Sequence record: OR844578
Direction: 5' to 3' (one strand)
DNA: 51,807 bases
Source of the DNA: Escherichia phage ECO26.1 3-1
A program made the position numbers and the translations under genes. The first letter of the stretch is position 1, and every line of letters begins with the position of its first letter. Below are positions 25,658 through 27,133 of this stretch, piece after piece. The notes below the pieces were generated by a model, which saw only the letters and a program-made list of their open reading frames with translations, was not told where the DNA came from and searched no databases.

Positions 25658-26215
25658 ATGACTGAACAAAAACCTAAAAATAACTATGTGAATAATAAAG
25701 AGCTTCTCGCCGCTATAATCGAGTGGAAAAAGGAGCTCTTAAATAATAAAGACCCAAACAAAATTATTCGTCAGAATGATACCATCGGTTTAGCAATTAT
25801 GCTTATCGCCGAAGGCCTATCTAAACGTTTCAACTTTTCAGGATATACCCAGTCTTGGAAGCAGGAGATGATTGCAGATGGGATTGAAGCCTCTATTAAG
25901 GGACTTCATAATTTCGACGAAACTAAGTACAATAACCCACATGCATACATAACTCGAGCTTGTTTTAATGCTTTTGTCCAACGTATCAAAAAAGAACGTA
26001 AGGAAGTTGCAAAGAAATATAGTTACTTCGTTCATAATGTCTACGACAGTCATGACGATGATATGGTAGCGTTGGTAGATGAAACGTTTATTCAAGACAT
26101 CTACGATAAAATGACGCATTATGAAGAATCCGCTTATAAAGCTCCTGGGGCTGAAAAGAAGGAAGTTGTTAGCGATTCGCCTAGTTTGGATTTTTTATAT
26201 GAGGATGACAATTGA
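25658..26215 (+). CDS. 55: late-transcription sigma factor gp55
   Basis: 185 aa; ...[39 protein letters not shown]... near-identical to T4 gp55; SD AAGAGGT. Confidence 0.9.
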
Positions 26216-26414
26216 CATCTCTAACTACTTAGAAGAACCTTTTGACGAAGCAATCCCTTATTTGGTAAAACTGTTGGGTCGTGAATTTAAAATTAATTTT
26301 GACATCGACCCTTTGAACCCACATGACGTGTCATTTTCAATAAATGGGACTCCAGTTGAGTACGAGTTCTGTATTGAAGAGGATGGACGTTTTTATTTTA
26401 ATTTAATGAGATAA
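26199..26414 (+). CDS. hypothetical protein (71 aa)
   Basis: Overlaps gene 55 end; ORF track. Confidence 0.4.
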
Positions 26415-26415
26415 T

Positions 26416-26739
26416 ATGACTACCGAGATTATTGAAAATAAAGAAGCAGAAGATGCAGTAGCTAAAATGCTACAAGAAATCCAAAAGAAAAATGAAGCTG
26501 AATCACGTAAAAAATCCGAAAAGATTCTTAAAAAGAATCGTTTTGAACTAAACCGTCTTTATGCTCATGCTCAAGAAGCAGCAATTCAAAACAACTTCGA
26601 AGCTTACGAATATGCTATTAAGAAATCTCGGGATATTCTACGACAACCATATAATGACAAGTTAATTAAAATCCAGTGGATTACTACTCGTCAGGCTATT
26701 GAGGACATCATTAATGGCGCTAGTTCAAAGAAAGTTTAA
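26416..26739 (+). CDS. hypothetical helical protein (107 aa)
   Basis: ORF track. Confidence 0.5.
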   Translation: MTTEIIENKEAEDAVAKMLQEIQKKNEAESRKKSEKILKKNRFELNRLYAHAQEAAIQNNFEAYEYAIKKSRDILRQPYNDKLIKIQWITTRQAIEDIINGASSKKV

Positions 26740-26920
26740 ACGTCTGAAGCTGAACGCAGGGTTCACCCTTAAATTGGGAGGTCCTCTTTGTGTTAAAATT
26801 TCCGAAAAGGAATATCACGACGGTTCTATTACAGAAATTTGTCCGCCTATTGTAAAGGCAGACCCAAAACAACTCGTGTGGGTTGATTCATTTCAAGTTA
26901 AGAAATGGTGGAAACGATGA
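26714..26920 (+). CDS. hypothetical protein (68 aa)
   Basis: SD GAGGA before ATG 26714. Confidence 0.4.
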   Translation: MALVQRKFKRLKLNAGFTLKLGGPLCVKISEKEYHDGSITEICPPIVKADPKQLVWVDSFQVKKWWKR

Positions 26921-26959
26921 GAGAAATCGATTTAGGTATTTTCTGAGAGGTGATTATGC

Positions 26960-27133
26960 ATGACGAACATCCCGACTTCTGAAAATTTCGATAAAATCAG
27001 TAAAGGCAAAGCAGAAAGAATGAGACGTTTTAAAGAGTCTTATGATAAAGCTAAAGCCGAAGGAACTATTACGTACAAGCCCATTCGATTTAAAAGTTCA
27101 AATGAGCCTCTGTACGGTGTACTATGTGGATAG
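26960..27133 (+). CDS. small hypothetical protein (57 aa)
   Basis: SD GAGGTG; ends just before a strong terminator. Confidence 0.4.
   Translation: MTNIPTSENFDKISKGKAERMRRFKESYDKAKAEGTITYKPIRFKSSNEPLYGVLCG

Follow-up and report, generated by a model that had tools for sequence, protein, structure and literature searches.

Genes between gene 55 and gene 47

The sequence analysed here (the window) is a stretch of 51,807 nucleotides from Escherichia phage ECO26.1 3-1 (sequence record OR844578), and the genes and elements characterised below lie on its plus strand. The interval under study is bordered on the left by gene 55, coding for the late sigma factor (185 aa; 25658..26215; 90.7% amino acid identity to T4 gp55; phrog_234, E 3.9e-68), and on the right by gene 47, coding for an SbcD-like nuclease subunit (27206..28225; 75.8% identity to T4 gp47 over 339 aa; phrog_100). 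The 990 bases from the gene 55 stop (26215) to the gene 47 start (27206) are taken up by four short ORFs: an a-gt.5 ortholog (71 aa; 26199..26414; 46.6% identity to T4 a-gt.5 over the full length, E 1e-17; PF17595), which shares its first 17 nt with the end of gene 55, as is the case in T4; an a-gt.4 ortholog (107 aa; 26416..26739; 58.3% to T4 a-gt.4, E 4e-37; PF10849, E 1.9e-27); an a-gt.3 ortholog (68 aa; 26714..26920; 70.8% to T4 a-gt.3, E 1e-33); and an a-gt.2 ortholog (57 aa; 26960..27133; 74.1% to T4 a-gt.2, E 1e-27; PF17588).

The family matches of these ORFs were DUF5491 (a-gt.5), DUF2654 (a-gt.4) and DUF5486 (a-gt.2) in Pfam and phrog_1169, 951, 1648 (the a-gt.3 ortholog) and 2140 in PHROGs. 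The match of a-gt.2 to a PHROG 'head maturation protease' family covers 34 residues only and was regarded as an annotation artefact. The mechanical ORF list had placed two of the starts too far upstream, at 26121 and 26699; with the starts adopted above, the alignments to the T4 orthologs begin at residues 1-3. A literature search found no functional study of a-gt.2, a-gt.3, a-gt.4 or a-gt.5.

In the T4 record the gene order is 55, a-gt.5, a-gt.4, a-gt.3, a-gt.2, mobB, a-gt, 47.1, 47. Relative to T4, the interval lacks precisely three genes: mobB, which encodes an HNH homing endonuclease, a-gt and 47.1. No match to any of them was present in the window at E ≤ 1e-3. In T4, mobB accompanies an a-gt gene that is bracketed by the cassettes described below.

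The interval is too small for a gene of 400 aa, and tblastn with T4 a-gt returned nothing there. An earlier note on this DNA had claimed that no a-gt gene lies between 55 and 47 and that the space holds only four small ORFs (57-107 aa) followed by a strong terminator. Both claims were borne out, the terminator being the UUCG hairpin of the next section. The four ORFs are the sole content of the interval but do not stand in for a-gt: their interpretation as a replacement module was rejected, because T4 carries all four as well, as a-gt.5 to a-gt.2. The missing a-gt is a statement about gene content, to which a 'more than chance' test is hardly applicable.

A hairpin and a middle-promoter-like element precede gene 47

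Directly after the last stop codon of the four-ORF series, a terminator scan and RNA folding identified an intrinsic-terminator-like hairpin (27132..27159). It consists of an 8-bp stem (AGGAACTC/GAGTTCCT) and a TTCG (UUCG) loop at 27132-27151, with a T run (T9) up to 27159; its minimum free energy was -12 kcal/mol (z = -2.83 against shuffles). A middle-promoter-like element of gene 47 was read from the sequence at 27159..27182: TGCTTTA (27159-27165), an 11-nt spacer and TAGAAT (27177-27182). GAGG is found at 27195-27198, ahead of the gene 47 ATG at 27206. The element resembles a MotA-box middle promoter, as judged by the consensus in PMC4122927, and may function as one. The hairpin at 27132-27151 is the sole UUCG-loop hairpin in the window with a Mot-like box after it.

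At the DNA level, the window and T4 are homologous from a-gt.2 to TGCTTTATAAA, the hairpin included, and again from the start of gene 47; approximately 2.25 kb (mobB, a-gt and 47.1), present in T4 only, lies between the hairpin/promoter and gene 47. In T4, one hairpin-plus-TTGCTTTA unit follows a-gt.2 and another, reading AAGGGC-TTCG-GCCCTT, TAGCTTTA ... GATATAAT, follows a-gt. Klebsiella phage Mineola has one UUCG hairpin and (T)GCTTT cassette on either side of a-gt, and Edwardsiella phage PEi20, without a-gt, has a single hairpin/promoter cassette, as in the window. The hairpins of T4, Mineola and PEi20 at this junction are homologous to that of the window.

The window thus has, at an indel boundary, a stem-loop followed by a middle-promoter-like element, which is the arrangement of PeSL/PmSL cassettes. 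These composite terminator-promoter cassettes are proposed to cause indels in T4-like phages (PMC4122927). By analogy, the 55-47 cassette may be PeSL/PmSL-like.

Searches for T4-type glucosyltransferases

Comparison of the window (~52 kb) with about 150 Mosigvirus genomes (RB69-like; moskry, mar005P1, APCEc01, F2 and others) gave identities of 95-99%, with many of the genomes at 98-99% in nucleotide sequence; the closest database match was phage moskry (MN850651; 98.3% identity over 24.9 kb). By sequence identity, the window belongs to Mosigvirus, a genus of RB69-like T4-type coliphages. For whole-genome glucosyltransferase searches, the moskry genome (169,410 bp), assembled from MN850651, served as a stand-in: about two thirds of the genome lies outside the window, and absence elsewhere in this phage's own genome is read from its 98.3%-identical relative.

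The tBLASTN check proposed in the earlier note, with T4 a-gt and b-gt as queries, was run on the window and on the complete moskry genome and found no homolog. For a-gt the best E-values were 0.041 in the window and 0.09 in moskry, neither significant, and for b-gt they were 2.2 and 5.6, all computed against a joint database of window and moskry. T2 ba-gt gave nothing below E 10 in the window and 1.1 at best in the moskry genome. The best a-gt match (E 0.041, 85 aa, 12413-12652) was attributed to chance; the ORF that contains it has weak, sub-threshold AAA-ATPase and HTH matches. Permissive tblastn searches (E ≤ 100, word size 2) with a-gt, b-gt and gp42 returned noise only, except for gp42 against 40984-41700, and among the remaining large ORFs without an assignment in the window, none matched a glycosyltransferase family in Pfam.

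A T4-type glucosyltransferase might be encoded outside the 52-kb window, in which case the phage would still glucosylate its DNA. The extent of the genome beyond the window, and the plastic regions and mobile accessory genes of T4-like genomes, would allow for this. Against it, the complete moskry genome has no match to a-gt, b-gt or ba-gt, and the same holds for RB69, which has no homolog of any of the three (Thomas et al. 2018, PMC6024577; PMC13326640). Also, the window contains no T4-type gene 42 that could supply hydroxymethylcytosine (hmC): the only homolog of the gp42-type dCMP hydroxymethylase has 24.8% identity to T4 gp42, as against 99.2% to RB69 gp48. We consider a glucosyltransferase outside the window highly improbable.

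An RB69-type modification cluster between the DNA polymerase gene and uvsX

Nine genes located at 36599-43149, between the DNA polymerase gene (33847-36558) and uvsX (43248-44420), share 97.8% nucleotide identity with RB69 gp55-gp45 (95-100% for the proteins). The same 43-uvsX interval of T4 contains imm.1, imm, 42, b-gt and segA.

The first gene of the cluster encodes a homolog of the arabinose-5-phosphate isomerase RB69 gp55 (36599..37234; 99.1% identity; SIS domain; role according to PMC13326640). It is followed by a nucleotidyltransferase and sugar-kinase-like protein of 561 aa, corresponding to RB69 ORF53_52c (37416..39101; 98.6% and 99.7% to gp53 and gp52; NTP_transferase match and weak kinase-family matches), for which synthesis of the NDP-arabinose donor is the proposed function, and by a phosphatase-like homolog of RB69 gp51 (39101..39487; 99.2%; no Pfam match; role proposed in PMC13326640). 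A Peptidase-U32-family protein, the counterpart of RB69 gp50, is encoded at 39545..40705 (99.5%; PF01136). In the position of T4 gene 42 lies a gene for a thymidylate-synthase homolog (40984..41700; 99.2% over 238 aa to RB69 gp48; PF00303), a candidate 5hodCMP synthase. The adjoining gene, immediately downstream, encodes a 299-aa putative GT-B-fold glycosyltransferase, the counterpart of RB69 gp46:47 (41700..42599; 98-100% to RB69 gp47 and gp46); in T4, b-gt comes after gene 42. The last cluster gene before uvsX encodes a nucleotide-kinase-like protein, the RB69 gp45 counterpart (42601..43149; 98.9%; role according to PMC13326640). The genes of the arabinose donor branch (isomerase, phosphatase and kinase/nucleotidyltransferase) thus show 98.6-99.7% identity to their RB69 counterparts.

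Outside the cluster, a gene 56-type dCTPase gene is found at 51215..51751 (start codon uncertain; dUTPase_2 match), the moskry counterpart of which is annotated as dCTP pyrophosphatase. This enzyme would remove dCTP, so that only modified cytosine enters the DNA.

Arabinose is present in RB69 DNA (Thomas et al. 2018, PMC6024577), and the virion DNA contains mono- and di-arabosylated 5-hydroxycytosine (Lee et al. 2026, PMC13326640). Conversion of dCMP to 5hodCMP, not to 5hmdCMP, by RB69 gp48 was shown in vivo, with 18-O2 labelling and a flavin cofactor, and the proposed pathway comprises gp45-gp55 and gp3, with gp46:47, a single gene, as the proposed first arabinosyltransferase (PMC13326640). 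The cluster is carried by Mosigviruses and about ten other Straboviridae groups (PMC13326640).

The second arabinosyltransferase, RB69 gp3, is encoded next to rIIA, a locus beyond the window; in moskry, the product moskry_23 is 99% identical to RB69 gp3.

Predicted fold of the 299-aa protein

By its RB69 gp46:47 counterpart, the 299-aa protein (41700-42599) is a putative DNA arabinosyltransferase, proposed to act first. BLASTP of both arabinosyltransferase candidates, the 299-aa protein and moskry_23, against a-gt, b-gt and ba-gt found no similarity. Since Pfam searches gave no match for either candidate, the fold was tested by structure prediction.

The 299-aa protein has 138 homologs, all unnamed, in PEi20, Yersinia phage TG1, EcS1, Acinetobacter phages Acj61, Acj9 and Ac42, Serratia phage 92A1 and metagenomes; 41 of the 138 were aligned. 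The AlphaFold model had a pLDDT of 94.7 and a pTM of 0.89. In a Foldseek search of the PDB, the model matched MshA (3c4q), sucrose-phosphate synthase (6kih) and UDP-GlcNAc 2-epimerases (probability 1.00; highest TM 0.62). The modelled protein is of the GT-B fold, and the Foldseek matches indicate that the site beside the gene-42 homolog, which is the b-gt site in T4, holds a different, predicted GT-B enzyme.

These results modify one remark of the earlier note and agree with another. The note had called b-gt missing: no b-gt match exists, but the place beside the gene-42 homolog is filled by a different protein of predicted GT-B fold. Its suggestion that T4-style glucosylation of the DNA does not occur in this phage is supported both by the lack of a-gt, b-gt and ba-gt matches and by the presence of the RB69-type arabinosyl-5-hydroxycytosine cluster.

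Proposed modification of the phage DNA

By homology to RB69, we infer that the DNA of this phage carries arabinosylated 5-hydroxycytosine; the glycosylated base is probably not hmC. The best explanation of the data, to which we give a probability of about 0.93, is that the phage is a Mosigvirus with an RB69-type arabinosyl-5-hydroxycytosine pathway, that it makes no glucosyl-hmC, and that its compact 55-47 interval is ordinary. Mosigviruses make no glucosyl-hydroxymethylcytosine and so carry none of a-gt, b-gt and ba-gt.

In this pathway, as published for RB69, the gp48-like synthase would convert dCMP to 5-hydroxy-dCMP, and kinases together with the phage polymerase would put the hydroxylated nucleotide into DNA. 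The sugar-nucleotide branch (arabinose-5-phosphate isomerase, phosphatase and kinase/nucleotidyltransferase) would provide the NDP-arabinose donor, from which GT-B glycosyltransferases would add one or two arabinoses to the 5-hydroxyl. Apart from the second transferase, the genes predicted for these steps all lie at 36599-43149 in the window. The 55-47 locus has the compact arrangement that recurs in further T4-like lineages: four small conserved genes, one hairpin/terminator and middle-promoter cassette, and gene 47. In Tequatrovirus and Jiaodavirus an a-gt module is added at this cassette.

The individual RB69 transferases were inactive in vitro and the first transfer step was not reconstituted (PMC13326640). 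This could be taken to mean that the sugar-pathway genes are inactive here and that the DNA contains plain 5-hydroxycytosine or hmC without a sugar, or unmodified cytosine. However, no ORF of the cluster is disrupted, identity to the RB69 counterparts is 95-100%, and RB69 virion DNA is fully arabinosylated (PMC13326640). Moreover, gp46/47 and gp52/53 are each divided in two in the RB69 record, whereas the window has one intact ORF for each pair; the division of RB69 ORF53/52, a single gene, was shown to be a sequencing error (PMC6024577). A sugar-free DNA is therefore a very unlikely outcome.

The 55-47 locus in other lineages

Homologs of a-gt were found in 657 records of the phage collection, belonging to Tequatrovirus (at least 90% identity), Klebsiella Jiaodavirus (about 66%) and a few cyanophages. 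For the locus itself, lineages were sampled in order of gp47 similarity, by which Tequatrovirus is the genus closest to the window (76-78% identity). Kanagawavirus PEi20 shows exactly the layout of the window between 55 and 47, with no a-gt, and in Lazarusvirus DP45, Serratia phage 92A1 and Krischvirus MIZ6 there are only two or three small ORFs between the two genes. With Mosigvirus, the compact layout thus occurs in five sampled lineages. This recurrence identifies the a-gt module as the exception, and the empty 55-47 site is not unusual among the sampled T4-like lineages.

The distribution bears on the possibility that an ancestral a-gt module was deleted by recombination between two flanking hairpin/promoter cassettes, leaving one behind, together with or after a switch to arabosyl-5-hydroxycytosine. 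The presence of a-gt at exactly this locus in both Tequatrovirus and Jiaodavirus, with 66% identity between the two, would fit such a history, as would the close relation of the window to Tequatrovirus by gp47, the two cassettes that bracket a-gt in T4 and Mineola as opposed to one in the window and in PEi20, and the reported role of such cassettes in indels of T4-like phages (PMC4122927). On the other hand, given the five compact lineages, acquisition of a-gt by the two glucosylating genera is no less parsimonious than its loss, and tblastn detected no a-gt remnant in the window. Deletion in the ancestry of this phage is, in our judgement, rather unlikely.

A more general suggestion, which we offer tentatively and regard as somewhat doubtful, is that the T-even a-gt gene is a mobile module bounded by cassettes, and that in arabinosyl-5-hydroxycytosine phages the corresponding position retains one 'empty' cassette. 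If this were true, the 55-47 site would be a recombination point for the gain or loss of a DNA-glycosylation type between genera.

Significance

Which host defences are escaped or triggered, including type IV restriction (GmrSD/BrxU), DNA glycosylases and CRISPR-Cas, depends on how a T4-like phage hypermodifies its cytosine, and so does the possibility of gene exchange with T4. For these reasons, a sequence-based call between arabinosyl-5-hydroxycytosine and glucosyl-hmC is useful for phage therapy and engineering. The missing a-gt re-identifies a published property of Mosigviruses, which was already known and adds no new biology. Only one angle is mildly new: duplicated hairpin/Mot-promoter cassettes bracket a-gt where it is present, and a single cassette marks the empty site here.

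Comparison with known systems

The cassette before gene 47 is similar to the PeSL/PmSL cassettes (Arbiol 2010; Comeau 2014) in that a stem-loop and, after it, a promoter, here a TGCTT Mot-box with a -10 box, border a variable module. The accessible part of PMC4122927 does not describe the 55-47 junction ('a-gt' and 'mobB' do not occur in it), and the likeness is one of resemblance.

Mineola (Jiaodavirus) shares with the window the four small genes and, ahead of gene 47, the hairpin/promoter cassette. It differs in having an a-gt gene, 66% identical to T4 a-gt, between a-gt.2 and the cassette, without mobB and 47.1. In PEi20 the order 55 / a-gt.5 /.4 /.3 /.2 / hairpin-promoter / 47 is identical to that of the window, and a 72%-identical homolog of the 299-aa putative GT-B protein is present, although this phage belongs to another genus, infects another host and has a gp47 that is 67% identical.

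T4 shares the order of the backbone, 55 / a-gt.5-.2 / 47 / 46 ... 43 ... uvsX. It shares also the logic of the modification expected here: a thymidylate-synthase homolog would produce a modified dCMP, a dCTPase would remove dCTP, and a GT-B enzyme encoded by a neighbouring gene would glycosylate the base. T4 differs in that mobB, a-gt and 47.1 separate a-gt.2 from 47 and that b-gt lies beside 42; none of these four genes is found in the window. T4 gp42 hydroxymethylates, whereas the synthase of the window, 25% identical to it, would hydroxylate, as judged by its identity to RB69 gp48. The sugar differs as well: in T4 it is glucose, from host UDP-glucose, and in the RB69 type arabinose, with a phage-encoded donor pathway.

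The closest likeness is to RB69 and the Mosigviruses moskry, mar005P1 and APCEc01, with 97.5-98.7% nucleotide identity. Nothing material differs from these phages: gp46/47 and gp52/53 each correspond to one ORF in the window, which agrees with the published opinion that the splits in RB69 are sequencing errors, and the gp3-type second transferase belongs outside it, and in all of them the same compact 55-47 interval and the same 43-uvsX cluster occur together, without a-gt, b-gt or ba-gt.

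A complete RB69-type cytosine hypermodification cluster between the DNA polymerase gene and uvsX

The interval between the DNA polymerase gene and uvsX (36599-43149) was found to hold a complete cytosine hypermodification cluster of the RB69 type. Its genes encode predicted homologs of an arabinose-5-P isomerase, a nucleotidyltransferase/kinase, a phosphatase, a U32-family protein, a 5-hydroxy-dCMP synthase, a GT-B transferase and a nucleotide kinase. For the peptidase-U32-family protein (386 aa; 39545-40705), the only role proposed in the 2026 paper on the arabinosyl-5-hydroxycytosine pathway of RB69 is a guess, "sugar or heterocycle reductase" (PMC13326640).

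Organization of the region from gene 55 to gene 47, and ORFs elsewhere in the window

Alignment with the T4 orthologs showed that three genes had been over-extended upstream, to TTG or ATG codons, in the mechanical ORF list: the starts matching T4 are 25658 for gene 55 (listed at 25640), 26199 for a-gt.5 (26121) and 26714 for a-gt.3 (26699).

At the a-gt.2/47 junction (27132-27182) a UUCG-loop hairpin is followed by a Mot-box-like TGCTT(T/A) motif and a -10 box. A single copy of this cassette is present at the junction in phages lacking a-gt, the T4 alpha-glucosyltransferase gene (the window and Edwardsiella phage PEi20), whereas in T4 and in Klebsiella phage Mineola, which carries a-gt, the cassette flanks the gene on both sides. 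The hairpin of the window copy is followed by a long T-run, which is absent from the T4 copies.

No homing endonuclease gene was found in the window counterparts of the T4 mobB site, upstream of a-gt (25640-30390), and of the T4 segA site, upstream of uvsX (43149-43248). The T4 mobB protein, used as a query, gave zero matches in the window or in phage moskry, the closest database match (MN850651).

The best tblastn match to a-gt fell inside a 333-aa ORF of the nrdC.x region (12266-13267) and was rejected as spurious. This ORF has only weak matches, to AAA-ATPase/STAND and HTH_37; it is annotated in moskry as "thioredoxin", a label that looks like annotation carry-over. In a 329-aa ORF at 10866-11855, an RlaP domain was matched at E 9.5e-13; RlaP denotes an RNA repair pathway nucleotidyltransferase of the DNA polymerase beta family.

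Placement of imm.1 and imm

The genes imm.1 (47512-47880; DUF5481) and imm, together spanning 47512-48200, are located between 61.4/dmd and sp. An ORF at 48540-49199 has a strong Pfam match to AdfA (Anti-DarT factor A; E 8e-120), a counter-defence gene of the T4 61.2 type.

T4 carries imm.1 and imm between its genes 43 and 42; hence the superinfection-immunity genes are relocated relative to T4. The position occupied in the window by the RB69-type cluster holds, in T4, the block imm.1-imm-42-b-gt-segA, which includes the beta-glucosyltransferase gene b-gt.
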